Source: an uncultured Pseudomonadales bacterium
GTDB lineage: Bacteria; Patescibacteriota; Microgenomatia; UBA1400; CG1-02-47-37
Direction: 5' to 3'
Length of the DNA stretch: 64,000 nucleotides
NCBI GenBank assembly: GCA_964630755.1
Contig: CAZVYS010000001.1
Location: 25,893 to 89,892, forward strand
The notes below the pieces were generated by a model. The model saw only the letters and a program-made list of their open reading frames with translations, ran no database searches and was not told the origin of the DNA. Shown here piece by piece: positions 91 through 50,154 of the stretch; positions within the stretch are counted from its first letter, which is position 1; every line of letters begins with the position of its first letter. The translations under genes were made by a program, and so were the position numbers.

Positions 91-858
91 GTGAATTTTT
101 GGGTTAAAATCAAACTTAGACATATGGATAAAAAGACAGCTGGTAAGCTAAATCAAATTAATCAAGATTTCTACTTAAAGGTTCAGGAGTATTTTAACAG
201 AACAAGGCAATATTACTGGCGAGGGTTTGAAAAATTACTTCCCTATTTAGCTAACCTTCAGGGAGACTCCCTAAAGGTTCTTGATGTAGCTTGTGGGAAT
301 GGCCGATTTGGAAAGTTTTTAGCAGAAAAGGAAAGAAAGATTAAATACACAGGAATTGATAATAATCAGTATTTGTTAGATCAGGCTCAAAAAGACTTAC
401 CAAAAGCTAAGTTAATAAAACAGGATATTTTTGACAAATGGCAAGTTAAAGATAAATATGAGGTAATTGTTTTATTGGGTATTTTGCACCACATTCCAGG
501 TTTTGAAAATAGAGTAAAAATATTATTAAGAGCTAAAAAGAAATTAAAGAAAAACGGAGTGTTAATTTTTAGTTTATGGAGATTTGATAAGTCAAGAAAA
601 TATACCAGAAGAGTAATTAACTGGGGAGAGTTTAATCAAAATAGTAAGATAAAGATAAATCTAGATGAGCTTGAAAAAGGTGACAAAATAATAGACTGGA
701 AAAGAGGAGCTACAGCTTATCGATATGTGCATGTAACTTCTAAAATAGAGTTGGCTAAAATGATTGATAGGCTTCAAATGACAAAAACAAAAGAATTTTT
801 AGCTGATGGTGAGGAGAACAAGGGAAATAAATACGTTATTTTAAAAGCGGCAGCTTAA
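91..858 (+). CDS. class I SAM-dependent methyltransferase
   Basis: Motif I VLDVACGNGRFG with downstream acidic and hydrophobic motifs. The likelier start is the ATG at 124 (MDKKTAGK). Carries an in-frame palindromic element at 254-278 encoding LQGDSLKV just before motif I. Confidence 0.65.
   Translation: MNFWVKIKLRHMDKKTAGKLNQINQDFYLKVQEYFNRTRQYYWRGFEKLLPYLANLQGDSLKVLDVACGNGRFGKFLAEKERKIKYTGIDNNQYLLDQAQKDLPKAKLIKQDIFDKWQVKDKYEVIVLLGILHHIPGFENRVKILLRAKKKLKKNGVLIFSLWRFDKSRKYTRRVINWGEFNQNSKIKINLDELEKGDKIIDWKRGATAYRYVHVTSKIELAKMIDRLQMTKTKEFLADGEENKGNKYVILKAAA
254..278. repeat. palindromic element copy A (ACCTTCAGGGAGACTCCCTAAAGGT), in-frame in the methyltransferase
   Basis: Imperfect palindrome with a GGAGACTCC core and CCTTCAGG / CCTAAAGG arms. 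Translated as N-LQGDSLKV-L. Confidence 0.7.
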
Positions 859-1306
859 ATGGTTTTTGAAGATATTTTTTATAATTATTAATCATATCTA
901 AGTGATCAAAGGCTATTTCTTTCGAATTTGGTAGATTGTTAAGGTTAAACCATTTAGCTTGTTTAATTTCATGATCAGGCTCTTTAATTTTTTTTAAAGG
1001 TTTTAGTAAATGAACAAAAGAAATGTTTTGACGATCTTCATTTTTTCGATCAGGATTATCAATAATTTGAAATAAATCAATTACTTTGGTTTGATAGCCG
1101 GTTTCTTCAAAAACTTCTCGTTTGGCAGCTTTTTTTACAGTTTCATCTCTTTCAACATAACCACCTGGTAGTGCCCATTTATTTGGCTCTAGATACTTAG
1201 AGCCTCGTTTGACTAATAGAATTTGGTTGTCTTTAGTAACCAAATTATCAACTACTACATGGCGAAGTAAAACTTTGTTCTGGTTTTCAAAATTACAGGT
1301 AATCAT
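836..1306 (-). CDS. NUDIX hydrolase
   Basis: Nudix box GGYVERDETVKKAAKREVFEETG (GX5EX7REUXEEXGU). Confidence 0.75.
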   Translation of the reverse strand: MITCNFENQNKVLLRHVVVDNLVTKDNQILLVKRGSKYLEPNKWALPGGYVERDETVKKAAKREVFEETGYQTKVIDLFQIIDNPDRKNEDRQNISFVHLLKPLKKIKEPDHEIKQAKWFNLNNLPNSKEIAFDHLDMINNYKKYLQKPFKLPLLK

Positions 1307-2103
1307 TAACTAATAATGGGTTTGACAATCTTGATTATTGATTTAGTTAAGTTTTTTGGACCAATAACTAAAGAGTGTTGATAGGATTTAATGTTAGGGT
1401 GATTAACATCCGGTGGTTTAGAAATAAATTGATAGTAAAGATTGGCTTCTTTGGCAAAGAGAATAATGGCGGCAATATCCCAGATGGCTAGTTTAGTAAA
1501 AATAGCACAGTCAACTCTATCTAGAACTATATTTATGCCGTTAAAAACACAACTACCAAAATAGCGTGGATAGGGAATTATTTTTTTTAACTTGTTGCTT
1601 ATTTCGTAACGCTCTTTATCAAATGATCCATGGGAATAAACTAGAAATTTTGCAGTTACAGAAGGCTTTGAAAGATGTTTTTGATTATTTAGATACAAAC
1701 CATGATTTTTTTTTGCATGAATTAATTCGTTTTGCATGGGAAGTGAGGCAATGGCATAAAGTGGTTGATTTTGATGCCATAAAGCTATCGAGGTGGCAAA
1801 AATAGGAATAGCTTGAGCAAAATTTGAGGTGCCATCGATTGGGTCGATGATCCAGTTATATTCTTTTACTTTTGGCTTGGTTTCTTCTCCAATAAATCCT
1901 GATTCTGGTAATAATTTAGCTAATTTATTCTTGATCATTTCCTCAACTTGATGGTCAACCTGGGTAACAATAGAAATAGAAGAATTTTTAGATTTTTTGT
2001 AAGAAATTTCTAGCTCAGTGTTAAATTTTTCAAGAATTAGTTTGTTGGTTTTTTTTAATAACGAGCAAAGTTCTTGATGAATGTGGTTTAAATCTGGTTT
2101 CAT
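1306..2103 (-). CDS. inositol monophosphatase family protein (IMPase / SuhB / CysQ-like)
   Basis: Metal-binding motif WIIDPIDGTSNF typical of the IMPase/FBPase family. Overlaps the NUDIX gene by 1 nt. Confidence 0.7.
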   Translation of the reverse strand: MKPDLNHIHQELCSLLKKTNKLILEKFNTELEISYKKSKNSSISIVTQVDHQVEEMIKNKLAKLLPESGFIGEETKPKVKEYNWIIDPIDGTSNFAQAIPIFATSIALWHQNQPLYAIASLPMQNELIHAKKNHGLYLNNQKHLSKPSVTAKFLVYSHGSFDKERYEISNKLKKIIPYPRYFGSCVFNGINIVLDRVDCAIFTKLAIWDIAAIILFAKEANLYYQFISKPPDVNHPNIKSYQHSLVIGPKNLTKSIIKIVKPIIS

Positions 2104-2120
2104 TTAGTTATGATATCACA

Positions 2121-3257
2121 CTATAATTTAATAGTTTCAGCTTGCAAGGTAATTTTGTTAATAACTTTGTCTATTGGATAATCTGATTCAATTTGTTTAA
2201 CTTTTTCTAAGTTAGCTCTCGTGGCTGGTTTTTTACTCACTAAACTACAACAATCTTTGTAGGGTTTAATTGCTTGTTTTTCTAGGTCAATATTCTTAAC
2301 TAAGTTAATAATATCTTTTTTATCCATACCGATAAGGGGCCTAAAGATAGGGATGCCAACAGATTCATCAACAGCAACAATGTTTTCCATGGTTTGGGAA
2401 GCCACTTGACCTAAAGAATCACCTAAAACTAAAGCCTGGTAGCCGTGTTTCTTGGCTAGGTTCTCCCCGACTTTAACCATCAGACGTCTAAAAACAACTA
2501 GTTCTTGTTTTTGGAGCTTAGAATCAATTTCTAAAGCTGTTATTTGAAATGGAGTGTATGAAGATAAAAATAGCTTTTGAGATTGAGTGTAACTTGACAG
2601 TTTATCAACAATGGATTTTATTTTTGAGTTTAAAACTTTTTTTTGATCGGCAAAGACATGAAAGTGTAAATAATCGACCTTGGCTCCCCTTTTGGACATT
2701 AAATAACTTGAGGCAATTGAGTCAAAACCACCAGATAACAAAGATAAGACTTTACCAGAGGTGCCAACTGGCAGGCCACCGGATCCAGAAATCTTTTTTG
2801 TGTACAAGTGAGTGAAATTTTTGTTAATTATGATAAAAATTTGAGTTTGAGGATTTTTTAGATTAACTTTTGATTTGGTTGCTTTTCTGACTGCCTCTCC
2901 TACCTTAATGGCTACATCTTGACTATTAAATGAAATGGTTTTATCAGCTCGTGTAACGCGAAGAGCAAAGCTTTTTGGTTTTGAAGCTAATTTTATAGCT
3001 TGCCTTGAAATTTCTTTTAAATTGGTTTTAGTTTCTTTTATATGAGCAAACCAGGCAATGCCAAATACATTTTGAAGTTTATTTATGCTTTGATTAATTA
3101 AACTAGATTTCACCTCTATAAATAACTGTTTTCTTCCCAGAGTGACAATAACTGGATTAATAGTCTGTTTAATGTTTCTGATAAGCTGATGTTCGAAGTC
3201 TTTTCGGTTGTGGCCTTTGAGACCAATTTCTGCGTACCGAACGAGAATTTTTGCCAT
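2121..3257 (-). CDS. thiI: tRNA 4-thiouridine(8) synthase ThiI
   Basis: N-terminal THUMP-like region plus PP-loop SGGFDS. Length and order are typical of ThiI. Confidence 0.8.
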   Translation of the reverse strand: MAKILVRYAEIGLKGHNRKDFEHQLIRNIKQTINPVIVTLGRKQLFIEVKSSLINQSINKLQNVFGIAWFAHIKETKTNLKEISRQAIKLASKPKSFALRVTRADKTISFNSQDVAIKVGEAVRKATKSKVNLKNPQTQIFIIINKNFTHLYTKKISGSGGLPVGTSGKVLSLLSGGFDSIASSYLMSKRGAKVDYLHFHVFADQKKVLNSKIKSIVDKLSSYTQSQKLFLSSYTPFQITALEIDSKLQKQELVVFRRLMVKVGENLAKKHGYQALVLGDSLGQVASQTMENIVAVDESVGIPIFRPLIGMDKKDIINLVKNIDLEKQAIKPYKDCCSLVSKKPATRANLEKVKQIESDYPIDKVINKITLQAETIKL

Positions 3258-7481: not shown

Positions 7482-7985
7482 ATGAAAAATAACTATTCAT
7501 TGTGGGTAGTGCCACCTACAAAGATTAAGCAACAACTAGAAACTGTTATAAATCAGTTGAGTAATGAGTATAATGCGCCCAGATTTGAAGCTCATATGAC
7601 AATTTTAGGAGGATTTGATGAAGAAGAAAAAGAAATGCTTAATAAAGCGCGGCAAATAGCTAAAAAAATAAAACCATTTGTATTGAGCCTAGATAAAGTT
7701 TCTTGCAGTACAACCTATGTTCAAAATGTTTTAGTTAGAGTAACCGTAACCAAAGAAGTACTTGAAGCTAACATGGTGGCAAAAAAAGTAATGAAAAAAG
7801 AAAATGACATGTTTATGCCGCATATTAGCCTAATGTATGGGGATCATACTATGAAAGAAAGAGCTGAGATTGCTTTAAAAATTAATCTACCCAGAGAGAT
7901 ATCATTTGATGTAAGCAAACTGGTGGTAATGGAAACTGGAGCTAATATTGAAAAATGGAAGTGTTTAGACGAGATTTCATTCTGA
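7482..7985 (+). CDS. 2H phosphoesterase superfamily protein (LigT / cyclic phosphodiesterase-like)
   Basis: Two H-x-T/S-x motifs, HMTILGGF and HISLMYG, spaced as in 2'-5' RNA ligase / 2H enzymes. Confidence 0.5.
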   Translation: MKNNYSLWVVPPTKIKQQLETVINQLSNEYNAPRFEAHMTILGGFDEEEKEMLNKARQIAKKIKPFVLSLDKVSCSTTYVQNVLVRVTVTKEVLEANMVAKKVMKKENDMFMPHISLMYGDHTMKERAEIALKINLPREISFDVSKLVVMETGANIEKWKCLDEISF

Positions 7986-8003
7986 CAAGGCCGGGCCTTG
8001 TCA
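7983..8003. terminator. GC-rich perfect hairpin (TGACAAGGCC-G-GGCCTTGTCA) between convergent genes, probably a bidirectional terminator
   Basis: A 10-bp inverted repeat followed by ATTTAATT. Its AAGG/CCTT arms echo the dispersed palindromic element. Confidence 0.35.
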
Positions 8004-10084: not shown

Positions 10085-10903
10085 CTAATCTGCAAGAGGA
10101 ATTGAGTCTTTAAGGCTGAATTTTCCAACTTTAAGACGCTTGATGTTTAAAGCAAGGGCGGGAATATTTAGTTTTTGGCCAATGTTATTAGCTAACGAAC
10201 GCATATAAGTACCAGATGAGCAAGAAATCTTAAGAGTGGCAGTGGAAAAAGTATTAATGGAGTTTTGATTAAAGAATGCTTGCCAAGTCTTTTTAATTTG
10301 GGATTGTCGAAAGTCTCCTTTTACTAGTTTAATTGATTGAAGTATGTGCTTTTTGAGACTAATAGCAGAAATTCTGTTTATTGAAATTAGATTAATAGAG
10401 TTAATGGTGATTTTTCGAGTGGGAATTTTGATTTTATTTAGCTGATTAGTCCGAGCGTAATAGAAAAGCGGCCTACCTTTAACAGTTTTAGATGAATAGG
10501 GTGGATAAACTTGAACTTGAGGACCAATATAGCTTGGTAAAAGACCTTCAAGGTTGGACCTTGAAGGTTGGTGTCTCGAGAGTCTATTTGTTATAGGCTT
10601 AGAAAGCCTACCTTCAAGGTTGGACCTTGAAGGGTGAGAAGGTAGACCAAGAAAGTCGTAAGTGTCGGTGGAGACACCAAAGACAATTGTTAGCTGATAT
10701 GTTTTATCAAGATTAAGATATTGAGCTTTAAGCTTTTCAGTGGGATCAAGAATAATTAACAACACCCCCTCAGCTAAAGGGTCTAGCCGACCAGCATAGG
10801 TAAGTTTTTGATTTATTAGCTCAGGTTTTAGCTGTTGAAGCCTGTTAATGGCTTGAAGAGGCGTAAAACCTACAGGTTTATTTAAGTTGAAAATCTTTGC
10901 CAT
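10085..10903 (-). CDS. truB: tRNA pseudouridine(55) synthase TruB, with an approximately 90-nt in-frame insertion
   Basis: Catalytic motif AGRLDPLAEGVLLI (GxLDxxAxGVL). A PUA-like C-terminus is present. It carries a tandem palindromic-element insertion encoding PSRSNLEG twice. Confidence 0.8.
   Translation of the reverse strand: MAKIFNLNKPVGFTPLQAINRLQQLKPELINQKLTYAGRLDPLAEGVLLIILDPTEKLKAQYLNLDKTYQLTIVFGVSTDTYDFLGLPSHPSRSNLEGRLSKPITNRLSRHQPSRSNLEGLLPSYIGPQVQVYPPYSSKTVKGRPLFYYARTNQLNKIKIPTRKITINSINLISINRISAISLKKHILQSIKLVKGDFRQSQIKKTWQAFFNQNSINTFSTATLKISCSSGTYMRSLANNIGQKLNIPALALNIKRLKVGKFSLKDSIPLAD
10544..10634. repeat. tandem pair of palindromic elements (ACCTTCAAGGTTGGACCTTGAAGG, twice) with a palindromic spacer, inside truB
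   Basis: Copies at 10544-10568 and 10610-10634. The spacer contains CTCGAGAG and AGGCTTAGAAAGCCT palindromes. In-frame with no stop. Confidence 0.7.
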
Positions 10904-12570
10904 ATGAATAAATCCTTAAAAGTTAATTGGCCGTCATTATTAGTATCAAGGGGCAGTAAAGTTTTAAATTGAATTTGGGTAGAAGAAGAATTTAAGGTAG
11001 AGATAGTTTGACGAGGTAAATAAAATGGCTTTAGTAACACAAATCGGTAAATAGTTTCAGGGATGACGCTGTAAAGTTTAATTGGTTGACTAAGTTGGTT
11101 TTTAAGATTAACGGCCATTTCTTTAACTAAGGTTTGATCCTGGTTATAGATTAAAAGCTGGTAATCAGTCTCTGATCTATCTTTAATAAATAGTCGTTTA
11201 GCTTTGATGATCAAGCTTGGAGGGGGAATTACTTTAATGGTGTTACTGAATTCTTCCCCAAAAAGAGAAAGATTGGTTTGAAGTTGAAAATTAAGCTGAT
11301 ACTCCCCTGGTGTTTCTGGAGTAGTTAGATCAATAGTAAAAGTATGATCAGAAAAAGGTTTAGTTGATTCAAGTTTTGTAATTGTAATGTTATTAGTCGG
11401 AAAATCGCCGGTTGGTTTTAAGAAGAAATCTTGATTCCAAATAGATTGTCCAGTGTTTTTGAAAGTGGTCGAAAACCGATAAGTAGAAGAGTCAATTAAT
11501 TGACTGGGGATGTTTGACGAAATTAATTGACTATTATGAATTTGAACTGGTTGCCCAGAATTTTTTTCTAAGTTTTTAACTGCATAATAATGTGGGAAAA
11601 AATCATCGGTGTTTGGTTCTTGCCAAGCAAATTGACTAAAAGGTGGTTGAGGATAATTTAAAACAAAAGGAGTGATGGCCACTAGGTTTTTTTGATTCCA
11701 GATAGAAGTAAAGGCAGTGGTAAAAAAATCAGATAAGGCAGAGGTTTGATTGGTAGTTGCACCTAAAACTTTGCCTTGCTGGTGTATCCAGCCGGTTTCG
11801 GTTATAAAAATAGGCAAGTTTGATTTTAAGTTATATTTTGAAAGATAAGAAATTTCAGCTTGATAGCTTCTAAGACTACCAAATCCCTGACCGGAAACTG
11901 GGCCAGAAAATCCAGGATTAGGGTAAGAATGAGAATTCCAACCATCGAAAAGAGTAAAGATTTGATTATCTTCTTGATGCATTTGTCGCCAGTATTCAGT
12001 GGCTGTCATGGTTTGAGAAGAATTAGGGGCAGCAGTGTCAAAACCGGCTGGCAAGATAAAGTAATCTTTGGATGATTCTTTTAAAGCTGAGTGGAAAGCC
12101 TTGGTAATGGTGACATATTCTTGAGGATTGATATCTCCACCCCATTCTTTTTTATGATTTGGTTCATTAAATAAAACTAGGTAGCGATTTTGAATCACCC
12201 AGTTTAATGAATCAAGAAACTTAACCCAATTATCAATATCTTTAAGCTCTGGTTTGGCCCAATAATCAGAAACTGGCTTGGTGGCAATTCTAACAATTGG
12301 AATAAGTTTTAACTTTCGACATTGATCAAAAATTTTCTGCCATTTATCAAGATTTTGATCGTTTTGACGGATAACGAGAGTGACATAGCCCCATTGACCT
12401 TTTTGACTATTAACTAGTTTGGCGGCAGCTTCTAGGTCATCTATCTCTAAAACATGAATGCCGAATTTATTATTGCTAACTGATAGTGGATCAGAAACAG
12501 CTTTGATCGGCTTTACAAACCAAAAAAAGCAGATTACAAAAACCAGAAAAATACTAATAATTCGTTTCAT
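10882..12570 (-). CDS. secreted glycoside hydrolase, clan GH-A (GH5-like), with a C-terminal Ca-binding dockerin/EF-hand-like motif
   Basis: Signal peptide; LVLFNEPNH (acid/base Glu) and IFITETGW (nucleophile Glu) in the clan GH-A arrangement; C-terminal DTNNDGQLTFKD. Confidence 0.45.
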   Translation of the reverse strand: MKRIISIFLVFVICFFWFVKPIKAVSDPLSVSNNKFGIHVLEIDDLEAAAKLVNSQKGQWGYVTLVIRQNDQNLDKWQKIFDQCRKLKLIPIVRIATKPVSDYWAKPELKDIDNWVKFLDSLNWVIQNRYLVLFNEPNHKKEWGGDINPQEYVTITKAFHSALKESSKDYFILPAGFDTAAPNSSQTMTATEYWRQMHQEDNQIFTLFDGWNSHSYPNPGFSGPVSGQGFGSLRSYQAEISYLSKYNLKSNLPIFITETGWIHQQGKVLGATTNQTSALSDFFTTAFTSIWNQKNLVAITPFVLNYPQPPFSQFAWQEPNTDDFFPHYYAVKNLEKNSGQPVQIHNSQLISSNIPSQLIDSSTYRFSTTFKNTGQSIWNQDFFLKPTGDFPTNNITITKLESTKPFSDHTFTIDLTTPETPGEYQLNFQLQTNLSLFGEEFSNTIKVIPPPSLIIKAKRLFIKDRSETDYQLLIYNQDQTLVKEMAVNLKNQLSQPIKLYSVIPETIYRFVLLKPFYLPRQTISTLNSSSTQIQFKTLLPLDTNNDGQLTFKDLFIWQRFST

Positions 12571-19144: not shown

Positions 19145-19171
19145 AGCCTACGAGGAGAGTCCTTGTAGGCT
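19145..19171. repeat. palindromic element copy (AGCCTACGAGGAGAGTCCTTGTAGGCT) abutting the recJ stop codon
   Basis: Inverted repeat with a GGAGAGTCC core; overlaps the TAA of recJ (19171-19173). Confidence 0.6.
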
Positions 19172-20856
19172 TAGGTCATGAGAACTGTTTTGACTTTTAG
19201 TTGGAGGGATTTTTGGTTGTTCCAGACGTTTTTATCGAGAGTGTAGACAAGATCAATTGGTTGATTTTCTGATAAGTCTTTGGCTAGATAGCCGTGGTTA
19301 AAAGCAATGGCATTTACCTTCAAGGAGTCTCCCTGTAGGCTTAATTTAAGATGTTTTTGGTCTTGGCCGACGGTGCGAAAACTAGCTAAAGAGACTTTTT
19401 TAGAAATAAAGACTGGCCGAGGATTGCCAAAACCAAAGGGGCGTAGTTTTTCAAGGTCATCATATAATTCCCAGTTAATGTCAGAAAGATTAAGCTCTAG
19501 GTCAACCTCTAGGATTGGAGTGAGTTGTCTTTCTGTTAGTTGCTTTTCAGCTAAAGCAGTTAATTTTTTCTTCACTTTTTCAAGATTTTGATTTGCAACC
19601 GTAAAGCCAGCAGCCATTGGGTGACCGCCGTGTTCAAGTAAGTCTTTTTCAATAGATCTAATATTTTTAATGGCATTAAAGCCTTTAATCGACCTAATTG
19701 AAGCTTTGGAAGTGTTTTTGCCAAGAGCGACTACAATGCTAGGTCGATGATATTTTTCAGCCAAGCGACTGGCAACTAGACCAACTAAACCTTCATGAAA
19801 AGTTTTGTCTGCTACGAAAATGAGCTTTGGCATTTGATTTTGATTTAGCTTGGAGACTTTGTTGGTAATGTTTTTGGCATGAAAGTACATATCTAGAGTT
19901 TGGGTTTGACGAGTCTGATTGGTAAGGTTCACGGTTTGGGCTAGTTTTTTAGCCTTGTTATTATCGGTGGTGCAAAGTAACCTCAATGAATCTAGGGCAT
20001 GAGATAAACGCCCCATGGCGTTAAGCCGAGGACCAATAACAAAACTGGCCTGATAGGCTTCAAGGTCTTGGAGTTTAAAACCAGCTTCATCAGCTAGAGC
20101 AATTAGACCGGGTCTTTTAGAACTTTGAAGTTTTTTTAAACCAAATTTAGCAATAGAGCGATTTATACCCACTAAAGGCATCATGTCAGCAATAGAACCA
20201 AGGGCAACTAAACTTAAGTGTTGAGGGATATTTTTAAGAAGCTTTGAAATCTGCCAAGCAACGCCAACGCCAGCTAGCTTAGTAGAGTGAACGATGGAGT
20301 GAGCTTTGGGAAGTTTATTACCCTTTGGTTGATGGTGGTCAGAGATAATAACTTCAATGCCTAGTCTATTGGCATAATCCACTCCTTTAAAGGCCGAGAT
20401 ACCGTTGTCAACGGTGATGATAAGATCGGGCTTTTTCTTTTTTAAAGAAATAATCTCGTCAATGCCCTGAGGAGATAAACCGCGGATTTTATCATCTCGG
20501 GGTGGAATATATGGTAAAGCATTAGCTTTTAATTGATAAAGTGTTTCCCACAAAACAGCGGTGGCGGTTACTCCATCAGCGTCAAAATCTCCGTAAATAA
20601 AGATCAGTTCTTTATTTTTAATAGCTTTTTTAATTCTTGTAACTGCTTTTTTGAGTTGAGTTGAATTAATTTCTAAGTCTTTAGGGGAAAAGTTGATTGG
20701 ATTTTCTGGGCTTAAAAATTGGTTTTGGAGTTTTTTGGATATAAGACCTCTGTTAATTAATAAAGCCTGGATGATTTCCTGGCGGCGTTTATTGAGACTT
20801 TTAGTTTTTAGTTTAGATTTTATTTTTATCTTTTTATCCATAAGAGATATAATCAT
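19171..20856 (-). CDS. recJ: single-stranded-DNA-specific exonuclease RecJ
   Basis: DHH family motifs (GDFDADGVT, ...IISDHH) and a DHHA1-like C-terminal region. Carries an in-frame palindromic element near the C-terminus (LSLQGDSLKVNAI). Confidence 0.8.
   Translation of the reverse strand: MIISLMDKKIKIKSKLKTKSLNKRRQEIIQALLINRGLISKKLQNQFLSPENPINFSPKDLEINSTQLKKAVTRIKKAIKNKELIFIYGDFDADGVTATAVLWETLYQLKANALPYIPPRDDKIRGLSPQGIDEIISLKKKKPDLIITVDNGISAFKGVDYANRLGIEVIISDHHQPKGNKLPKAHSIVHSTKLAGVGVAWQISKLLKNIPQHLSLVALGSIADMMPLVGINRSIAKFGLKKLQSSKRPGLIALADEAGFKLQDLEAYQASFVIGPRLNAMGRLSHALDSLRLLCTTDNNKAKKLAQTVNLTNQTRQTQTLDMYFHAKNITNKVSKLNQNQMPKLIFVADKTFHEGLVGLVASRLAEKYHRPSIVVALGKNTSKASIRSIKGFNAIKNIRSIEKDLLEHGGHPMAAGFTVANQNLEKVKKKLTALAEKQLTERQLTPILEVDLELNLSDINWELYDDLEKLRPFGFGNPRPVFISKKVSLASFRTVGQDQKHLKLSLQGDSLKVNAIAFNHGYLAKDLSENQPIDLVYTLDKNVWNNQKSLQLKVKTVLMT
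19316..19341. repeat. palindromic element copy (ACCTTCAAGGAGTCTCCCTGTAGGCT), in-frame in recJ
   Basis: GGAGTCTCC core; encodes LQGDSLKV on the minus strand. Confidence 0.7.
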
Positions 20857-20886: not shown

Positions 20887-21615
20887 ATGAATTTACGTCT
20901 GAAAAATTATAAGAAAATTAGAACTCCGTTTGTATTTTTAGATGAAACTGGATCAATAAACTCAAAAGCAGAAAGATTTTTTGGAATTGGAATGATTAAG
21001 TGCATGCAGCCATTTTTTTTAGACTCAAGCATTAGATACATTAGGCAAAAATATAAGCTTTATGATGAAATAAAGTGGAATACTATTTCTAAAGCAAAAA
21101 TGGCTGTTTTAAAAGAAATAATTAAAACTATTTTTGAAACTCCAGGAATTTATTTTTCTTCCTTAATTATTAATAAAGATGATGTTAATTTTGAAATTGA
21201 GTTTAATAATAATCCATATTTAGCATATCAAAAATTTTCAGAAGAGTTGCTAAAAAATAGTATTAGTCAAACAGAAATATTAACGGTTTTAGCTGATTAT
21301 ATTGATACGCCTAAATCAGTTAGGTATGAAGTAATGGTAAAACATCAAGTTAATCAAGCACTAGATCGACTAGCAATCGGGGGCATACATAGAGTAGATT
21401 CAAAAGGGGTAAATTTAATTCAAATAACTGATTTATTTTTAGGAGCCGTAGTGTATAACTATAAAATTGACAATAAATTAGTAACTGGAGACAAGAATAA
21501 AATAAAAATACTACAATATATTCAGTCAGGGTTAAAGATTAAATCTTTAGGTCAATCTATAAACGTAAAAGGGTTTAAAGTATTTGAATACAATAAAAAA
21601 GGGCCATCATCCTAA
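20887..21615 (+). CDS. hypothetical protein, DUF3800-like
   Basis: The N-terminus TPFVFLDETGSINS resembles the DUF3800 (Y)IDESG start. No other motif recognised. Confidence 0.3.
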   Translation: MNLRLKNYKKIRTPFVFLDETGSINSKAERFFGIGMIKCMQPFFLDSSIRYIRQKYKLYDEIKWNTISKAKMAVLKEIIKTIFETPGIYFSSLIINKDDVNFEIEFNNNPYLAYQKFSEELLKNSISQTEILTVLADYIDTPKSVRYEVMVKHQVNQALDRLAIGGIHRVDSKGVNLIQITDLFLGAVVYNYKIDNKLVTGDKNKIKILQYIQSGLKIKSLGQSINVKGFKVFEYNKKGPSS

Positions 21616-21667: not shown

Positions 21668-23041
21668 ATGAAAATTAAGCTTCCAGGGCCAGTAAAAAAA
21701 GTAATTAAAGTGGTAGAAAAAGCAGGCTTTGAAATATATATAGTTGGAGGGGCGGTTAGAGATATATTAACTGGTAAAGAAGTTAAAGATTGGGACCTAA
21801 CCACAAATGCAAAGCCTGAAGAGATAACTAAGTTATTTAAAGACTCGTTTTATGATAATGATTTTGGCACAGTGGGGATAGCTGAAAAGCACTTGGGAGG
21901 TAAGGATGAGGGAGTTTTAGAGATTACTACCTTTCGAACTGAATCAAGTTATTCTGACTCTAGACGCCCTGATAAAGTTAAGTGGGGTAAAAGTTTAGAT
22001 GAGGATTTAACTAGACGAGATTTTACTATCAATGCCATGGCAATAAAAATCTCCAGCCTACAAGGATCATCCTTAAAGGTTGAGATAATCGACCCATTTA
22101 AAGGACAAAAGGATTTAGAAAAAAGATTAATTAGGGCGGTTGGTGACCCAGATAAGCGGTTTAAAGAAGATGCTTTAAGAATGATGAGGGCGATTAGAAT
22201 CGCAGCAGAACTTGGTTTTACCATTGAAGCTAAGACCTTAAAAGCGATTAGCACGGATGCTAGATTACTAAAAAAAATTGCCAAAGAAAGGGTTCGAGAT
22301 GAGTTGCTTAAGATTATTGTTTCAAAATTTCCTAAAGATGGAGTGACTTTGTTATATACCAGCGGACTACTACAATTTATTATTCCAGAGTTAATTGAAA
22401 CTCGAGAAGTTGAACAAGCTGGGCATCATACTAAAGATGTATGGAACCATAGTTTAGACGCGATGGCTAACTGTCCTTCGCCTGATCCAATTATTCGCCT
22501 TGCTACCCTACTCCATGATGTTGGCAAACCAAGGTCAAAAAGAAATCGAGGTAAAGGCAAAGAAATTACTTTTTACAATCATGAAGTGATTGGGGCCAGG
22601 ATGGTAAAAGATATTGCCAGGAGACTAAAGATGAGTAAAAAAGAAATAGACTTACTCTGGTTACTGGTGCGCTGGCATATGTTTGCTTATGAACCCAAGA
22701 TGACAGACAAAGCGATTCGAAGATTTATTAAACGAGTCTCGTTAGAAAATATTAATAAAATGATGATGCTTAGGATTGGAGACCGGATTGGCGGGGGTAG
22801 TAAAGCTACTTCCTGGAGATTAAGAGAATTACAACAACGAATTGGTGAAGTGCTTTATACGCCGATGCAGATAAAAGACTTAAAAGTATCTGGTCACGAT
22901 GTAATGAAGATAAAAAAAATTAAAGGTGGGCCAGAGATTGGAAAAATTTTAGAAAAGCTGTTTGATGAAGTAATGGAAGATAGTAGCAAAAACAACAGAA
23001 AGTATCTTTTAAAACGGATTAAAGAAATAAATCCAAAATAA
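21668..23041 (+). CDS. cca: tRNA nucleotidyltransferase (CCA-adding enzyme / poly(A) polymerase family) with an HD domain
   Basis: IVGGAVRDILTG...DWDLTT polymerase-beta head motif; HD domain (LLHDVGK). In-frame palindromic element encoding SSLQGSSLKVEI. Confidence 0.75.
   Translation: MKIKLPGPVKKVIKVVEKAGFEIYIVGGAVRDILTGKEVKDWDLTTNAKPEEITKLFKDSFYDNDFGTVGIAEKHLGGKDEGVLEITTFRTESSYSDSRRPDKVKWGKSLDEDLTRRDFTINAMAIKISSLQGSSLKVEIIDPFKGQKDLEKRLIRAVGDPDKRFKEDALRMMRAIRIAAELGFTIEAKTLKAISTDARLLKKIAKERVRDELLKIIVSKFPKDGVTLLYTSGLLQFIIPELIETREVEQAGHHTKDVWNHSLDAMANCPSPDPIIRLATLLHDVGKPRSKRNRGKGKEITFYNHEVIGARMVKDIARRLKMSKKEIDLLWLLVRWHMFAYEPKMTDKAIRRFIKRVSLENINKMMMLRIGDRIGGGSKATSWRLRELQQRIGEVLYTPMQIKDLKVSGHDVMKIKKIKGGPEIGKILEKLFDEVMEDSSKNNRKYLLKRIKEINPK
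22055..22080. repeat. palindromic element copy (AGCCTACAAGGATCATCCTTAAAGGT), in-frame in cca
   Basis: CCTACAAGG / CCTTAAAGG arms with a GGATCATCC core. Confidence 0.65.
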
Positions 23042-23048
23042 AAAAAGT

Positions 23049-23103
23049 GCCAAGTGAAGAATGGGTTTAAGATTAAAAATCTTAAAAACAAGCTCCACTT
23101 GGC
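23049..23103. terminator. nested hairpin between the convergent cca and secF genes (outer stem GCCAAGTG/CACTTGGC, inner TTTAAGATT/AATCTTAAA)
   Basis: Inverted repeats in the 88-nt convergent intergenic region; plausibly a bidirectional terminator. Confidence 0.3.
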
Positions 23104-23129
23104 TTACTTCTAACTTGGAGAATAATTAT

Positions 23130-24021: not shown

Positions 24022-25434
24022 TTATCCTGTAGGGAGACTCCTTCCAGTTTTGCTGTCCCGATTTGGCCGTTGGCCAGATCTCCTGTCAAGGAGTCTCCCT
24101 CCAACTCTCATTAGAGATCTAGTTACTATGACTCCTGTAAACAAACTAATAATCACTCCAATAAACAAAGTTAAGGCAAAGCCTTTGACCATTCCAGAAG
24201 TATTTAGAAAGTTAAAGTTAAAAGGATTAATTAAGACTAAGCTTGTAATGATTGTGGCAAGATTGGCATCTTTGATTGAGTCCCAAGCTCGACCAAAACC
24301 CAATTCTAAAGAAACAGCAAAAGACCGACCAGCTCTTAACTCTTCTTTGAGTCTTTCAAAAATTAAGATATTTGAGTCAACGGCCATGCCGACTGACAAA
24401 ATAAAACCGGCAATGCCTGGTAAAGTTAAGGTAACTGGAATTAATTTATAAATAGTTAAAGTAATCAAACCATAAATTAATAAAGCAATATTAGCTAACA
24501 TTCCGTTTAGTCCGTATAGCAAAACCATAAAAAGCATAACTAAGCCTAAACCAATGGCTCCAGCAGTGATTGATTTAGTGATTGAGGCTTCTCCCAAGGT
24601 AGCGGAAATGTTTTTTTGTTCAACAACCTTAATAGGAACTGGTAAAGCCCCAGCGTTAAGCATGATAGATAATTCTGAAGCGGTTTCGGGGGTAAAGTTG
24701 CCAGAAATGACGGCTCGACCATCAAGAATTGGCTCGTTAACCATGGGTGAAGTAACTAAACGGTTATCTAGGAAAATAGCGACTGGTCGGTTTAAATTAC
24801 GAGAGGTAATGTCGGCAAATTGCTTTTTGCCTTCTTCTGAAAACTCTAAAGCAACTACTGGTTGATTGGCGGCTGATTGACCCTGAGAAAATTGGACTGA
24901 GGCTTTTTTTAGATCTTTGCCAGTCAAGCCGGTAGAAGTAAAGTTGAAAATACGGGTAAAAGCTGATGGGCTAGCGTAATTAACTTCAGCTGAATCAGTA
25001 GCAGTATCTTCCCTGAAATCTAACTGGGCAGTTTGACCGATTAAGTTAATAGCCGTAGATATATCCTGAATTCCAGGAAGCTCAACAATAATCCGGTATG
25101 AATCATCATGAATAGAAGTTTGTATTGATGGCTCTGACACCCCGTAGAGATCAACCCGGCGAGAGATAATTTCTTTTGAAGAGTTAATAGCATCAGGGAT
25201 ATCTTCTTTTTGAAGTGAGGACATATCTGCCTCTAAAACTAGATGAGTACCACCTTGAAGATCAAGTCCTTTTTTTAATTCAAGAGTTCGAGAGTTAATG
25301 GTAATTTTGGGAATATTAAAGTTTATTTCTCGATTTTTAATCTTAAAATTGACTGGAATAGCAGGAAGGTTGAGATAAAGGCAGACTAAAACTAGAAGTA
25401 TAATAAACCACAATCGGCGGACAGAATTTTTCAT
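24022..25434 (-). CDS. secD: protein translocase subunit SecD (C-terminal approximately 25 aa derived from palindromic elements)
   Basis: SecD periplasmic domain plus six C-terminal transmembrane helices. The C-terminal tail ...RRSGQRPNRDSKTGRSLPTG is encoded by the repeat block. Confidence 0.8.
   Translation of the reverse strand: MKNSVRRLWFIILLVLVCLYLNLPAIPVNFKIKNREINFNIPKITINSRTLELKKGLDLQGGTHLVLEADMSSLQKEDIPDAINSSKEIISRRVDLYGVSEPSIQTSIHDDSYRIIVELPGIQDISTAINLIGQTAQLDFREDTATDSAEVNYASPSAFTRIFNFTSTGLTGKDLKKASVQFSQGQSAANQPVVALEFSEEGKKQFADITSRNLNRPVAIFLDNRLVTSPMVNEPILDGRAVISGNFTPETASELSIMLNAGALPVPIKVVEQKNISATLGEASITKSITAGAIGLGLVMLFMVLLYGLNGMLANIALLIYGLITLTIYKLIPVTLTLPGIAGFILSVGMAVDSNILIFERLKEELRAGRSFAVSLELGFGRAWDSIKDANLATIITSLVLINPFNFNFLNTSGMVKGFALTLFIGVIISLFTGVIVTRSLMRVGGRLLDRRSGQRPNRDSKTGRSLPTG
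24026..24104. repeat. composite of two palindromic element copies (CCTGTAGGGAGACTCCTTCCAG and CCTGTCAAGGAGTCTCCCTCCAA) around a GGCCGTTGGCC palindrome, at the secD/secF junction
   Basis: GGAGACTCC / GGAGTCTCC cores. The whole block is in-frame with secD and forms its last approximately 25 codons. Confidence 0.7.
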
Positions 25435-25619: not shown

Positions 25620-25635
25620 ATGTAAACGCTATTCA

Positions 25636-25700
25636 TTAAGGTCCGGCCTTTAAGCTAAAGCTTCAAGAACAGACCTTGCTCCTTTCAGGAGACCATCTCC
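25636..25700. repeat. cluster of short palindromes (TTAAGGTCCGGCCTTTAA, CTCCTTTCAGGAG, GGAGACCATCTCC), possibly degenerate element copies or a terminator
   Basis: Inverted repeats seen directly. The arms and core resemble the dispersed element. Overlaps the last codons of the 25685-26269 gene. Confidence 0.3.
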
Positions 25701-35740: not shown

Positions 35741-36688
35741 CTATTTAGTATACCAAGACTTTAGTTGAGTGACTACTATTTGAGGATAGTTATGACTATT
35801 GATATTAAACCATTTAATGTAGGGTTTTTTATGAAACCAAGTTATTTGGCGACGAAGATATTGTTTTTCAGCTGTTGTCCAGGATTTAATAACTTTATCT
35901 ATGTTAATATTTTTCTTAAAATAAGGCTGCCATTGTTTATATCCCATGGCTGACATAGACGGTAAATTCCAAGAATAGCCAGCTTTGATTAGTGATTCAA
36001 CTTCTGCTTTGGAATTAGCGCTAATTCTATCAAGAACTCTTTTCTCAACTCTATTATCTAAGTTTTTTTTATTAGCAGTTAAACCAACCCAAAATTGATC
36101 AGATTCTGCAAGATTCAGTCTTTTTGTTTTCTTAACCTTCAAGGTCGGACCCTTAAGGTTAATTTCGATAGCCCGAATTAGTCGACGTGGATTATGTTGA
36201 TCAGAATGATTCATTTTTTGATATTTATCAAAATCTAGTTTTTTTAGTTTTTTTTGAAGACTGAGAACATTTAATTTACTTAACTGCTGGCGTAAAACTT
36301 GGTTAGCAGGAATGGCAATGGTGTTTAGTGGTTTTGTTAAAGCCTGAAGATACAAACCAGTACCGCCAACAAGAATAGGCAATTCTCTGGCAGTCCAAAT
36401 CTTTTTAATTCTAGGGATAGCAAAGTTTATAAAATGAGCGACAGAAAAATCCTGATTTGGTTTAACTAAATCGTAACCCCAGACTTTAATTTTTTTGATT
36501 AAATAATGTCCATCTTTATATTGTTTAGCTTTTTGAGGTAAATCTTTGCCTGTGCCAATATCCATTCCTTTATAAACTTGACGAGAATCAGCTGAGATAA
36601 TCTGACCTGAAAAGATCTTACTTAATTTTAAAGCCAAATTGGTTTTGCCAGTGGCAGTTGAACCACAAATAATTAGAAGTTTTTTCAT
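35741..36688 (-). CDS. miaA: tRNA dimethylallyltransferase MiaA (with an in-frame palindromic element)
   Basis: P-loop LLIICGSTATGKT, DSRQVYKGMDIGT. The element encodes INLKGPTLKVKK. Confidence 0.8.
   Translation of the reverse strand: MKKLLIICGSTATGKTNLALKLSKIFSGQIISADSRQVYKGMDIGTGKDLPQKAKQYKDGHYLIKKIKVWGYDLVKPNQDFSVAHFINFAIPRIKKIWTARELPILVGGTGLYLQALTKPLNTIAIPANQVLRQQLSKLNVLSLQKKLKKLDFDKYQKMNHSDQHNPRRLIRAIEINLKGPTLKVKKTKRLNLAESDQFWVGLTANKKNLDNRVEKRVLDRISANSKAEVESLIKAGYSWNLPSMSAMGYKQWQPYFKKNINIDKVIKSWTTAEKQYLRRQITWFHKKPYIKWFNINSHNYPQIVVTQLKSWYTK
36133..36159. repeat. palindromic element copy (AACCTTCAAGGTCGGACCCTTAAGGTT), in-frame in miaA
   Basis: CCTTCAAGG / CCTTAAGG arms with a GGTCGGACC core. 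Confidence 0.65.
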
Positions 36689-46546: not shown

Positions 46547-47212
46547 TTAGGTTGATATATCAGCCTTCTTTAAGAAGCTAATTAAATGCAAAAGATTGTC
46601 AATATAATAGTCTGCGTTGGTTGGTTGGTAATTATTAGGTAAGTTTTGAGTTAAGCAGATAGTAGTTATTTTACTGGCTTTTGCAGCATTAATGCCTGTT
46701 TGAGAATCTTCTAAAATATAAGAAGTTTGAGGATTAGCATTTAGTTTTTTTAAGGCATAAAGATAGCCGTCGGGATGAGGTTTGGATTTAAGCTGAGGGG
46801 TGTCGTTGACGGAAACAGTAACTGAAAACTGATTGGCAAACGGCAATCTAGCTAAAACTTTTTGAATCCATATTCGCCGCGAGGAAGACACAATGCCCAA
46901 TTTATATTGATTATTAGTTAAATAATTGACTAGCTTTTTTAAGTTAGGTGTAATTGGAGCCGTAGCATAAATCTCTTGAGCTTGCTGGTCATACCTTTTG
47001 ATAAATTGGTTTTTGGTACCTTTATACCCATACTCTTTTGCCCAATTGAAAATTGAGTTAAGATCACTGCCATAGGCTTTTTTTAATAAAAGCTTGGCTT
47101 TATTGGCGTTTAAGATTGAAGTGTAATATTTTAATTCTTTGGCTTGCCAGATTTTCTCACTATTAACAATAACTCCGTCCATGTCAAATAAAAAAACTTT
47201 GTTTTTTGTCAT
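46547..47212 (-). CDS. HAD-superfamily hydrolase (beta-phosphoglucomutase-like subfamily IA)
   Basis: Motif I VFLFDMDGVIVNSE (DxDGV), then motif II/III spacing. Confidence 0.6.
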   Translation of the reverse strand: MTKNKVFLFDMDGVIVNSEKIWQAKELKYYTSILNANKAKLLLKKAYGSDLNSIFNWAKEYGYKGTKNQFIKRYDQQAQEIYATAPITPNLKKLVNYLTNNQYKLGIVSSSRRIWIQKVLARLPFANQFSVTVSVNDTPQLKSKPHPDGYLYALKKLNANPQTSYILEDSQTGINAAKASKITTICLTQNLPNNYQPTNADYYIDNLLHLISFLKKADIST

Positions 47213-47216
47213 AAAT

Positions 47217-47987: not shown

Positions 47988-49006
47988 AATTTAAAAGCGT
48001 TTAGTAATCTTCTAACTTCTGACGGCTTTGAGGCTTTCATTAACTGAACTCTTAAAACTAAGGCATTGTCAAAACCTTTTATATATATTTTAAAGAATCT
48101 TTTCAAACTATGGAATGATTTTAAATTATTATTGGTTTGTTCAAAAAGCTTGAGGTGACTTAATAAAAGGTTAATTTTTTGTTTAGGGGTTTTTGAGTTG
48201 ATGGTTTGATTAGGATTAAAAATATATGGATCAAGCAAAACTCCCCTGCCGATCATGATGCCATCTAAAGAGTGTTTTTTAATCATGCTTTTTGCTTCTA
48301 AAAGGCTTTTAATATCACCATTACCGATGATTTTGGTTTTGGGGCTAAGCTTGTCTCTTAAAATAATAATTTTTTTTAGTTCCTGCCAATGAGGTTTTAC
48401 CTCTGACAGTTCTTTTTTGGTACGAAGATGAATGGTTAGAGCATCTAGGTTCAAAGAGAGTAAAAAGCCAAGCCATTCTTCAGTTTGAATCGAGTTAAAA
48501 CCTAATCTGGTTTTGACTGAAACGGGAGTTTTTTGATTGGCTCCAATTTGGGTGGCTTTGATAATTTCTTTAGCTATTTTAGGAGCGTTGATTAAAGCAG
48601 CGCCAGCGCCTTTTTTGATGACCGCTTTAACTGGACAGCCAAGATTAATATCTATGCCGTCAAAACCAAGTTTGCAGAGGAGCTTAGCTGTTTGTTCAAA
48701 TAATTCTGGGGTGGTACCCCAAATTTGGGCAATGAGCGGTTTTTGCTTTTTTTGATATTGAAGACGTCTAATAGAAGCAGTTTTGTCGTGAGAGAAAATG
48801 GCCTTGACATGAGTAAATTCGGTAAACATAAGATCTGGTTTGCCTAGATCACACAAAAGCGACCTAAATACTTCGTCAGTGACTCCATCCATAGGAGCAA
48901 GACATATGATTGGTTTTTTTAACTCTTGCCAAATATTTATCATACTGAGATTATATAATAGACAGACATGGCAAAAGATAAATATACAGCAGTTTGGGTA
49001 TCGCAT
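47984..49006 (-). CDS. dus: tRNA-dihydrouridine synthase
   Basis: ICLAPMDGVTDEVFR (the FMN-binding Dus motif) and a TIM-barrel pattern. The likelier start is MINIWQEL. Confidence 0.75.
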   Translation of the reverse strand: MRYPNCCIFIFCHVCLLYNLSMINIWQELKKPIICLAPMDGVTDEVFRSLLCDLGKPDLMFTEFTHVKAIFSHDKTASIRRLQYQKKQKPLIAQIWGTTPELFEQTAKLLCKLGFDGIDINLGCPVKAVIKKGAGAALINAPKIAKEIIKATQIGANQKTPVSVKTRLGFNSIQTEEWLGFLLSLNLDALTIHLRTKKELSEVKPHWQELKKIIILRDKLSPKTKIIGNGDIKSLLEAKSMIKKHSLDGIMIGRGVLLDPYIFNPNQTINSKTPKQKINLLLSHLKLFEQTNNNLKSFHSLKRFFKIYIKGFDNALVLRVQLMKASKPSEVRRLLNAFKL

Positions 49007-49828
49007 TCGTCAATTTCTGATTGGCTAGTGTGTCCTCGGGCCTACTTTCTTAAAAACGTTTACAAAGATCCAAAAACTGGGCGAAAGATATCCTTGGTTA
49101 GTCCGCCGTTAACTTTAGGAAAGGTAGTTCATGAAGTAGTGGAAGGATTATCGGTTTTGCCTCTTGAAAAGAGATTTAACGAACCTCTTTTGGCGAAGTT
49201 TGAAGAAAAGTGGCAACAAGTGAGCGGTAGGGCAGGAGGTTTTTTTAGCAAAGATGTGGAAATGAAGTATAAACAGCGAGGCCAAGAAATGCTAAAGAGA
49301 ATTACTAGAAATCCTGGGCCTCTAAATCGTCTGGCAGTAAAAATCCAGATGGAATTGCCTTATTATTGGCTTTCTGAAAAAGATAATATTATACTTTGCG
49401 GCATGATTGACTGGCTTGAGTATCTTGAAAAAGAAGACGCTGTTGCTATTATTGATTTTAAGACTGGTAAAAAAAGAGAGAAGAAAGGTTCTTTGCAGCT
49501 GCCTATTTACTACTTGTTGGCGACAGAAACTCAAAAAAGAGCAGTTAAGAAAGCTAGTTACTGGTATGTTTCTTTAGCTGATAAACCAGTTGAGCAAAAA
49601 TTACCAGATGCTGCAAAGTCCCGAGAAAAAATCTTAAAGATAGCAAAAGAGATTAAGTTGGCTCGACAACTAGAGAGATTTAAGTGTCCGAATAATGGTT
49701 GTCGAGCTTGTGAACCGTTTGAGGACGTTATTAATGGTAAGGCAGAATTAGTGGGAACGGATAATATTAATCGTGATGTATATATTTATTTAAAAAACGA
49801 AGATCAAACTGAAGGGGAAATATTGTGA
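48968..49828 (+). CDS. PD-(D/E)XK nuclease, Cas4/RecB-like (DUF83), with a putative Fe-S cysteine cluster
   Basis: N-terminal Cys (CPRAYFL); core motif GMIDWLEY...AIIDFKTGKK (the D...ExK pattern); C-terminal CPNNGCRAC cysteines as in Cas4 / AddB 4Fe-4S nucleases. Confidence 0.5.
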   Translation: MAKDKYTAVWVSHSSISDWLVCPRAYFLKNVYKDPKTGRKISLVSPPLTLGKVVHEVVEGLSVLPLEKRFNEPLLAKFEEKWQQVSGRAGGFFSKDVEMKYKQRGQEMLKRITRNPGPLNRLAVKIQMELPYYWLSEKDNIILCGMIDWLEYLEKEDAVAIIDFKTGKKREKKGSLQLPIYYLLATETQKRAVKKASYWYVSLADKPVEQKLPDAAKSREKILKIAKEIKLARQLERFKCPNNGCRACEPFEDVINGKAELVGTDNINRDVYIYLKNEDQTEGEIL

Positions 49829-50154
49829 CAGATAAGAGGGGCAAAGTTTTAAGGTGGGTGGGTAAGATTCCTAAAGGCAAGGTGTCTACATACGGTCGGA
49901 TTGCAAAACTAGCAAAAGTTAAAAGTGCCAGGCCAGTTGGTAACTGGCTGCACACTCATGGTAAACCAATCAGTATTGTCCCCTGTCATCGGGTGGTAAA
50001 TGCTCAAGGCAAGCTTGCTTTAAATTTTGGAGCTAAAGGTGGGATAAAAACTCAAAAAAAACGATTAGAAAATGAAGAGGTTAAGGTGGAAAACTATAAA
50101 GTAGATCTAGATAAATATTTATGGAAGCCTACAGGGAGTCTATTTGAAAGTTAG
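49825..50154 (+). CDS. ogt: methylated-DNA--protein-cysteine methyltransferase (Ogt/MGMT DNA-binding domain)
   Basis: VSTYGRIAKL...PCHRVVNAQGKL, with the PCHRV active-site motif. Start overlaps the upstream nuclease gene by 4 nt. Confidence 0.7.
   Translation: MTDKRGKVLRWVGKIPKGKVSTYGRIAKLAKVKSARPVGNWLHTHGKPISIVPCHRVVNAQGKLALNFGAKGGIKTQKKRLENEEVKVENYKVDLDKYLWKPTGSLFES
50128..50150. repeat. degenerate palindromic element copy (CCTACAGGGAGTCTATTTGAAAG) in the last codons of ogt
   Basis: Left arm and core match the family (CCTACAGGGAGTCT); the right arm is decayed. Confidence 0.3.

Follow-up and report, generated by a model that had tools for sequence, protein, structure and literature searches.

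The stretch of DNA analyzed here, a window of 64,000 nt from contig CAZVYS010000001.1 (recorded as an uncultured Pseudomonadales bacterium and placed by GTDB in the Patescibacteriota, that is, in the Candidate Phyla Radiation, CPR), is densely coding, with a G+C content of 35.5%, and carries a family of short palindromic repeats of 23-27 nt that lie mostly inside housekeeping genes. The genes carrying clean, decayed or possible copies encode a class I S-adenosylmethionine (SAM) methyltransferase, TruB, MiaA and an Ogt-like protein, along with RecJ, the CCA-adding enzyme and SecD/SecF, the last three identified from Pfam tables. These identities, which have Pfam support, are those given by the original prediction, an annotation made by reading the letters of the window alone, and every repeat sequence that it listed is present at its position. 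We describe this family, its distribution and a transposase gene associated with it, and argue that the repeats are probably REP-type (repetitive extragenic palindromic) elements of a RAYT-like (REP-associated tyrosine transposase) enzyme.

The consensus of the unit is A-CCT-W-CARGG-N-(NNN)-N'-CCYTG-W-AGG-T, and individual copies are often palindromic up to the centre. A search for CCTNNARGG-N5-CCYTNNAGG with at most 1 mismatch yielded 8 matches in the window, where 0.03 were expected; none of 100 dinucleotide-preserving shuffles reached 8 with the same pattern, and the number of copies thus lies far above chance. A palindrome-aware scan, requiring fixed CCT/GG/CC/AGG positions and at least 9 of 11 complementary pairs, recovered 7 clean copies (~1.1 per 10 kb) and none in shuffles; their 23-nt cores begin at 255, 10545, 10611, 19147, 19317, 22057 and 36136, and 6 of the 7 are intragenic. 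The set is completed by two doublets and a half copy, all of them decayed (Table 1). Two familiar identities were considered and rejected. The 9-mer arm CCTTCAAGG never stands alone in the window and occurs solely as an arm of the palindromes, which speaks against a DNA uptake sequence; and an Rfam scan at the gathering threshold returned just two tRNAs and no family matching the palindromes, which speaks against a known RNA family.

Table 1. Palindromic repeats and related hairpins in the window (positions in the window; folding energies and z-scores are predictions for single-stranded DNA)
Feature	Position	Strand	Gene or setting	Peptide	Remarks
Clean copy ACCTTCAGGGAGACTCCCTAAAGGT	254..278		Class I SAM methyltransferase	NLQGDSLKV	Directly ahead of motif I (VLDVACGNG); -7.5 kcal/mol, z -2.9
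Perfect 9-bp hairpin TGACAAGG-CCGGG-CCTTGTCA	7983..8003		Between convergent genes		z -6.4
Perfect copy	10544..10568		truB	QPSRSNLEG	-11 kcal/mol, z -4.7
Second truB copy	10610..10634		truB	HPSRSNLEG	66 nt from the first; loop orientation identical
Intergenic copy AGCCTACGAGGAGAGTCCTTGTAGGCT	19145..19171		Begins at last base of recJ stop codon		-10.1 kcal/mol, z -5.3
recJ copy	19316..19341		recJ, C-terminal domain	SLQGDSLKV	Beta-hairpin tip; six orthologs of 57-100% identity occupied
CCA-adding enzyme copy	22055..22080		CCA-adding enzyme	SLQGSSLKV	ATCAT centre, as in the copies at the RAYT of the same genome
REPIN-like doublet	24022..24108	-	secD/secF junction		Two decayed inverted copies (24026, 24082) and a spacer hairpin; SecD C-terminal tail replaced
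Two adjoining decayed copies	25633..25682		Intergenic spacer upstream of small AbrB/MazE-like gene
miaA copy	36131..36162		miaA, hypervariable linker following RRLIRAIEI	NLKGPTLKV	Palindrome reaches TTAACCTT...AAGGTTAA
Possible decayed copy	50128..50150	+	ogt 3' end		Left 14 nt intact, right arm degraded; weak evidence

The family is not confined to this genome. An exact-pattern scan of a public collection, with one genome per species, identified at least 117 matching loci, mostly in Beckwithbacteria, Collierbacteria, Microgenomates and other patescibacterial metagenome-assembled genomes (MAGs), with a few evident chance matches in unrelated phyla among the matches listed; the family is thus dispersed in many related genomes. 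The loci retrieved for comparison were 8-kb stretches picked by the pattern and hence form a biased sample. In unbiased syntenic loci, the density outside the window comes to ~0-1 copy per 10 kb; this density, like the figure of 60-100 copies per genome, is an extrapolation.

Each unit consists of an 11-bp stem that closes a 3-nt loop. Pairing was measured in 141 copies from the public genomes, retrieved with a pattern in which any base was allowed at the five central positions. At the pair that closes the loop, 10-14, 111 of the 141 copies have a Watson-Crick match versus 48 expected, with T-A, A-T and C-G all in use, and positions 11-13 pair in 79 copies (50 expected), such that the centre covaries; position 4/20 is weakly correlated (91/141 versus 76 expected). 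Stem position 4/20 is a fixed A.A (or T.T) mismatch in many copies, and the hairpin thereby acquires a polarity. For the clean copies of the window, folding as single-stranded DNA is predicted to yield -7 to -11 kcal/mol (z-scores from -2.9 to -5.3); the copies in recJ and the CCA-adding enzyme gene, with their two arm mismatches, fold more weakly. A tetranucleotide, G(T/A)AG, lies inside the outer stem on the 3' side of the hairpin strand, and in symmetric copies on both strands.

Clusters of 3-4 copies within ~700 nt, found among the public loci, all hold one gene that encodes a protein of 215-230 aa. A CRISPR array was rejected as the explanation of these clusters, given that the spacing is irregular (~190, 300 and 200 nt) and the copies frame a single Y1 transposase gene. 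Homologs of the protein were detected by tblastn at 16 such clusters, and the layout with four copies, present in at least 16 loci, is constant: one copy lies just upstream of the start codon, two are internal and in-frame, encoding LQGxTLKV and P[ST]RxxLEG, and one lies just after the stop codon. Both internal copies are nearly universal in that clade. The product of the gene at L069 (171-872) contains an HUH motif (NHYHIL) and a tyrosine motif (YIHRNP), scores 36.5 bits against Pfam Y1_Tnp (cut-off 23), and has a single NCBIfam match, REP_Tyr_transpos ("REP-associated tyrosine transposase"). In an AlphaFold (AF2) model with a predicted local distance difference test (pLDDT) score of 79, the peptides encoded by the two internal copies are the only low-confidence internal segments. 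The best fold match of this model in the PDB is 4ER8, the Escherichia coli RAYT bound to a REP hairpin (E 2e-5; template modelling score, TM, 0.62 on the target), with the TnpA proteins of IS608 and ISDra2 close behind; a sequence-only PDB search with the transposase returned nothing, and a profile search weak ISDra2 matches alone. A database search retrieved 2740 homologs, nearly all from Patescibacteria, that are annotated as "transposase" and, by JGI, at times as "RayT". The gene order dnaE|RAYT|gatB is retained across orthologs that are 73-100% identical, and one MAG (PFUC01; L050 and L074) has two RAYT genes, each surrounded by its own repeat variant.

A Y1 gene between hairpins might also be an ordinary autonomous insertion sequence (IS) of the IS200/IS605 type, whose orphan ends, remnants comparable to palindrome-associated transposable elements (PATEs), would make up the solitary hairpins. 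The resemblance is considerable: the Y1 HUH fold, hairpins presumably recognized on one strand and the lack of a target-site duplication are common to both, the fold of the protein matches IS608 and ISDra2 TnpA as well as the RAYT, and the asymmetric copies around the gene have one polarity throughout (27 A/A versus 0 genuine T/T), so that the flanks are direct, like the end hairpins of these elements; moreover, the location of the gene differs by lineage (dnaE|gatB or rpsG|fusA). Nevertheless, we regard this explanation as very unlikely, given that each gene type was seen at a single locus per genome and keeps its synteny across the orthologs mentioned above, that its product, at 215-230 aa, is longer than the IS200 TnpA (~130-150 aa) and has RAYTs as its best NCBIfam and PDB matches, and that no tnpB was found next to the gene. 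Furthermore, the dispersed unit is a bare hairpin of 23-27 nt rather than a pair of IS ends, and such solitary copies are far more numerous than the gene.

The genome to which the window belongs has a RAYT-like gene of its own. No such gene was detected within the window by tblastn; a public contig (L167) that is 100% identical to window positions 62422-64000 and extends 7.5 kb further encodes, at 737-1384, a Y1_Tnp protein of 215 aa, which places the gene ~6.1-6.8 kb past position 64000. The original prediction had proposed a look-up of RAYT-like transposases elsewhere in the genome, and the gene indeed lies just outside the window; RAYT-like Y1 genes flanked by copies of the repeat are present in at least 16 genomes (loci L069, L008, L038, L105, L119 and others). 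On L167, the copies, at 714, 909, 1213 and 1401, read CCTACAGGG-ATGAT/ATCAT-CCYTGAAGG on the coding strand. The gene lies between rpsG (S7) and fusA (EF-G), antisense to the str operon, and the interior of this operon is an unusual location for a transposase gene. The last 28 kb of the window (36200-64000), which include a ribosomal-protein operon, hold zero clean copies, and four then cluster at the RAYT gene just past the window end; the stretch without clean copies is consistent with low tolerance of insertions in highly conserved genes.

The two truB copies have the TTGGA/TCCAA centre that marks a second RAYT type, located between dnaE and gatB and known from related genomes and from metagenomes of the same sample series, and the 23-mer of the copy at 10544..10568 is found again at dnaE|RAYT|gatB loci of related genomes. 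Across 15 MAGs, 17 of 40 dispersed copies have the centre of the copies at the RAYT locus of the same genome, compared with 3.5 expected, and 0 of 2000 permutations reached 17 matches. Such within-genome matching is the pairing of variant and transposase that is expected of REP/RAYT systems.

The coding context of the copies was determined from stop-to-stop frames rather than with a gene caller. The fetched loci and the window together contain 174 copies, 103 of them (~60%) within open reading frames (ORFs) of at least 100 aa; ~40% lie outside long ORFs. Frame use is strongly biased: 52 of the 103 intra-ORF copies are in phase 2 (the LQG frame), 48 in phase 0 (the PSR frame) and 3 in phase 1, the third frame. 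In L050 and L058, the RAYT copy termed site B is read in the third frame. In the window, as originally noted, the copies in the genes for the methyltransferase, RecJ, the CCA-adding enzyme and MiaA share one frame and encode (N/S)L(Q/K)GxxLKV, and both truB copies use another and encode PSRSNLEG. A right arm of the GAAG type creates a TGA in the third frame and one of the GTAG type a TAG in the LQG frame; because either TGA or TAG blocks one frame, two frames per strand are open. The observation that the intragenic copies are in-frame and free of stop codons therefore stands, albeit not as a special property of the element: with two open frames, a length that keeps the frame and a filter for tolerant positions, the pattern reflects survivorship, not targeting. 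In a RecJ model (pLDDT 94) the element sits at the tip of a beta-hairpin, the two truB copies, in direct orientation, together extend a hypervariable loop of TruB, and the linker that holds the miaA copy is hypervariable like this loop. If translated, as the intact ORFs suggest, the copies would add 8-9 aa to tolerant loops.

The recurrence of LQGxSLKV across several enzymes and numerous RecJ orthologs raises the question of whether the peptides could be a protein-level motif, convergent or spread by domain shuffling, with the palindromy of the DNA as a by-product. This is hardly credible and is effectively refuted by the use of two reading frames, in which one DNA sequence encodes unrelated peptides, and by the intergenic copies, part of the ~40% outside long ORFs. 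In addition, the centre covaries at the nucleotide level, and its five nucleotides flip between TTGGA and TCCAA at orthologous positions with unchanged arms, both at RAYT loci (L069, L125, L129 and L151) and at TruB site 2 (window 10544-10568 versus P0396), with SN becoming LD and W becoming P in the peptide.

Comparison with related genomes exposed both empty and long-occupied sites. In L005 and L061, the CCA-adding enzyme (~79% aa identity) lacks 4 and 8 codons, respectively, exactly at the element, and the copy in the window is thus a lineage-specific insertion. No target-site duplication is visible at this filled-versus-empty site and the associated gene is of the Y1 rather than the DDE type, so a MITE (a miniature transposable element with inverted repeats) was rejected. 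At the secD/secF junction, the genes of L005 overlap, and the window contains 87 extra nt that rewrite the SecD tail, as judged by protein comparison, a MAFFT alignment of the DNA being uninformative. The 87-nt segment is predicted to form one long hairpin that pairs the two copies (-19.6 kcal/mol, z -4.7); the pair proposed by the original prediction at this junction is accordingly real though decayed, and L005 is without it. A further site, at about 25636-25700, turned out to be a decayed doublet: the spacer measures ~80 nt in the window and ~30 nt in L005, and the ~50 extra nt are two decayed copies. Of the RAYT orthologs, L043 is without site A and L112 without site B.

Other sites are old. 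The recJ site is occupied in six orthologs with readable DNA, where some arm changes are compensatory (G4-C20, G7-C17) and some create mismatches; in further orthologs of RecJ, the element is replaced by unrelated residues or by a deletion of 7 residues. TruB orthologs of at least 53% identity contain 1-3 element-derived peptides in the loop, a region that in TruBs of more distant CPR members is hypervariable both in sequence and in length. Given that orthologs down to ~52-60% identity have the RecJ, TruB and RAYT sites filled at the matching position, many insertions are ancient and vertically inherited. The ortholog alignments suggested by the original prediction are thus divided, with a lineage-specific copy in the CCA-adding enzyme and shared ones in RecJ and TruB. 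Formally, the shared RecJ and TruB peptides are what an ancestral motif would produce; the mobile reading stands, given the polymorphism at other sites and the fact that the orthologs share the DNA palindrome and not just the peptide.

Long occupation of a site would also be expected if the hairpins were DNA or mRNA signals selected by the host, for pausing, processing, stabilization or protein binding, with selection fixing their positions and the Y1 protein either domesticated or unrelated. The RecJ, TruB and RAYT sites, occupied over deep divergence with the compensatory changes described above, fit such a role, as do the near-universal internal RAYT copies and the second truB copy, which together with its 5' flank forms 30 consecutive identical columns between the window and L005 in an alignment that is ~70% identical around it. 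All the same, we consider a host signal unlikely. The copies sit in unrelated host genes, at hypervariable loops or at gene ends; those in the CCA-adding enzyme, at secD/secF and in the spacer are missing in close relatives without replacement; many copies are visibly decaying; and the recJ copy, in which the window and L005 agree at 16/23 positions, is changing at about the rate of the sequence around it. Nor does the gene-end copy at 19145..19171, originally likened to a terminator hairpin, behave as a signal of a familiar kind: it is not followed by a T tract, so a canonical intrinsic terminator was rejected, and the palindromes have no match in Rfam. L061 retains this copy at the corresponding place; in L005 it is conserved too, behind an inserted toxin-antitoxin pair (PhdYeFM/ParE, 11711-12222) that separates it from recJ.

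Taken together, these findings lead us to interpret the elements, with a probability of about 0.8, as REP-type palindromic DNA repeats of a RAYT-like Y1 (HUH) tyrosine transposase, in line with the proposal of the original prediction that they are mobile or self-propagating palindromes akin to REPs, bacterial interspersed mosaic elements (BIMEs) and Rickettsia palindromic elements (RPEs); their dispersal, the association with a transposase and the filled/empty polymorphism all support that proposal. Under this interpretation, each copy in single-stranded DNA would fold into the 11-bp stem with its 3-nt loop, and the enzyme, if it works like E. coli TnpA(REP) and the transposases of IS200/IS605 elements, would bind the hairpin on one strand, use its catalytic tyrosine to cut alongside and rejoin the hairpin at another place, leaving no target duplication. 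Catalysis, for which homology argues, is presumed, as are the choice of strand and current activity. In gene-dense genomes of 0.6-1 Mb, insertions would mostly hit genes, and the survivors would be those that preserve the frame, are read in either of the two frames without stops and occupy tolerant loops or linkers, with LQGxxLK or P(S/T)RxxLEG as the presumed translation. Once fixed, copies would pass vertically for long periods and then decay, or stay palindromic through compensatory change or homogenization.

Several observations weigh against the assignment to REP/RAYT. The GTAG-like tetranucleotide lies within the stem, at its 3' side, rather than as a free 5' tag; the asymmetric copies that flank the gene are direct, not inverted, unlike those of textbook REP/RAYT systems and resembling IS200/IS605 ends; and the match to REP_Tyr_transpos, at 36.9 bits, falls below the curated cut-off of 80. 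Moreover, neither activity of the transposase nor an excision product nor a very recent insertion was seen, and with several sites shared over 52-60% identity, movement may be rare or extinct.

The 30-column identity at truB and the loop flip are not explained by simple decay, and suggest re-insertion, arm-to-arm recombination or template switching, or homogenization. Along with the compensatory arm changes, and considering that the genomes are otherwise ~25% diverged, they are the grounds for a further reading that we deem rather unlikely, namely, that the hairpins, including the two inside the transposase gene, are maintained by selection or by active RAYT-dependent homogenization and would serve the host or regulate the transposase. 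If so, they would implement, for example, autoregulation of the transposase through the hairpins in its own gene or a controlled remodelling of protein loops.

Some genes and hairpins near the repeats deserve a separate account. The perfect hairpin at 7983..8003, which had been mentioned as a potential relative, is strong, but its relation to the family is uncertain because only the inner CAAGG/CCTTG is common to both; it could be either a terminator or a family member that has diverged. No support was obtained for the half sites suggested at 20387 and 17296. The decayed copy claimed at 50128..50150, which encodes the final residues, PTGSLFES, of a C-terminal extension of Ogt beyond the Pfam domain, matches the family in its left half alone and does not fold, and it is individually weak because ~4 chance matches with 3 mismatches are expected. 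A paralogous Y1_Tnp gene (226-229 aa), with neither flanking nor internal copies, lies between secF and cca in L132 (7951-8631) and L133 (7947-8636) and is truncated in L134. The window has an 88-nt spacer there (23042-23129) and L005 an unrelated ORF of 187 aa, for which descent from a degenerate transposase was considered and rejected. Between recJ and cca, the window contains a DUF3800 gene (20887-21615) that L005 lacks. Finally, several MAGs recorded as "uncultured Pseudomonadales" or "Gammaproteobacteria" (L132, that is, CAYICL010000001.1, and others among L010-L120) are syntenic with the CPR window and match it in RecJ (57% identity), gene order, repeats and RAYT, and for these reasons the labels of the records appear to be wrong.

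Among known systems, in-frame palindromes are represented by the RPEs, reportedly described by Ogata and colleagues in 2000. RPE-1 measures ~100-150 bp and is not known to have a transposase. Like the repeats described here, the RPEs are palindromic repeats located in frame in housekeeping genes and translated at tolerated surface positions. The present elements are set apart, on the basis of descriptions, by their size of 23-27 nt, the CPR lineage, arms of the CCTWCARGG type and a candidate transposase.

GTAG-type REP and REPIN elements (REP doublets that form larger hairpins) with their RAYTs are said to have been reported by Nunvar in 2010 and by Bertels and Rainey in 2011. The present system resembles them in its short, imperfect, many-copy palindromes with a loop of 2-3 nt, in a one-per-locus Y1/HUH gene flanked by its own repeat variant, in the matching of variants to the local RAYT within a genome, in long vertical persistence, and in doublets that form larger hairpins, here the 87-nt segment at secD/secF and the doublet at 25.6 kb. 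It differs in its CPR/Patescibacteria hosts, in the ~60% of copies that are inside ORFs and not extragenic, in a palindrome that extends to the ends with G(T/A)AG in the stem instead of an unpaired 5' GTAG, in direct flanks and a transposase gene that itself carries two in-frame copies, and in a protein that scores below the RAYT cut-off. However, GTAG- and CGTC-tagged REPs have been found inside genes, including DNA-repair genes and, in Stenotrophomonas maltophilia, truB, and these intragenic REPs were argued to occupy loops and to be neutral (Di Nocera et al. 2013, PMC3733652). REPs are on record from Proteobacteria, Cyanobacteria, Chloroflexi and the PVC group, and the short RPE-4 and RPE-6 are CGTC-tagged (PMC3733652). 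With intragenic REPs reported in other phyla in 2013, the family is not a new category; its claimed novelty holds for the CPR, in that the literature searched contained no paper linking REP or RAYT to CPR/Patescibacteria.

A second palindrome family is present in the same TruB loop. In a Gottesmanbacteria truB (L163 2649-3551; JACREK010000177.1), an in-frame palindrome of ~105 nt, GTCATTGCGAGGAGTGAA...TTCAGTCGCTCGCAATGAC, folds at -28.4 kcal/mol with DNA parameters and encodes a peptide, ..SVIARSES...LPRSFSVARND.., in which VIAR and (P/A)RND are mutual reverse-complement translations; the family is also represented in proteins P0402, P0422, P0439 and P0442. These palindromes form a second, RPE-sized set of translated palindromes in the CPR and hint that the insertion of palindromes in frame may be widespread in the evolution of CPR proteins.

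The interpretation favored here, REP-type repeats of a RAYT-like transposase, would extend REP/RAYT systems to the CPR and, in these compact genomes, make the repeats mainly intragenic, adding 8-9 residues to enzymes that include the transposase itself along with RecJ, TruB, MiaA and the CCA-adding enzyme. It would also provide the Rickettsia-type in-frame palindrome, so far without a mobilizing enzyme, with a concrete candidate enzyme and testable hairpin substrates. In practice, such repeats break metagenome assemblies and create spurious "conserved motifs" in CPR proteins, and they can be used as lineage markers.

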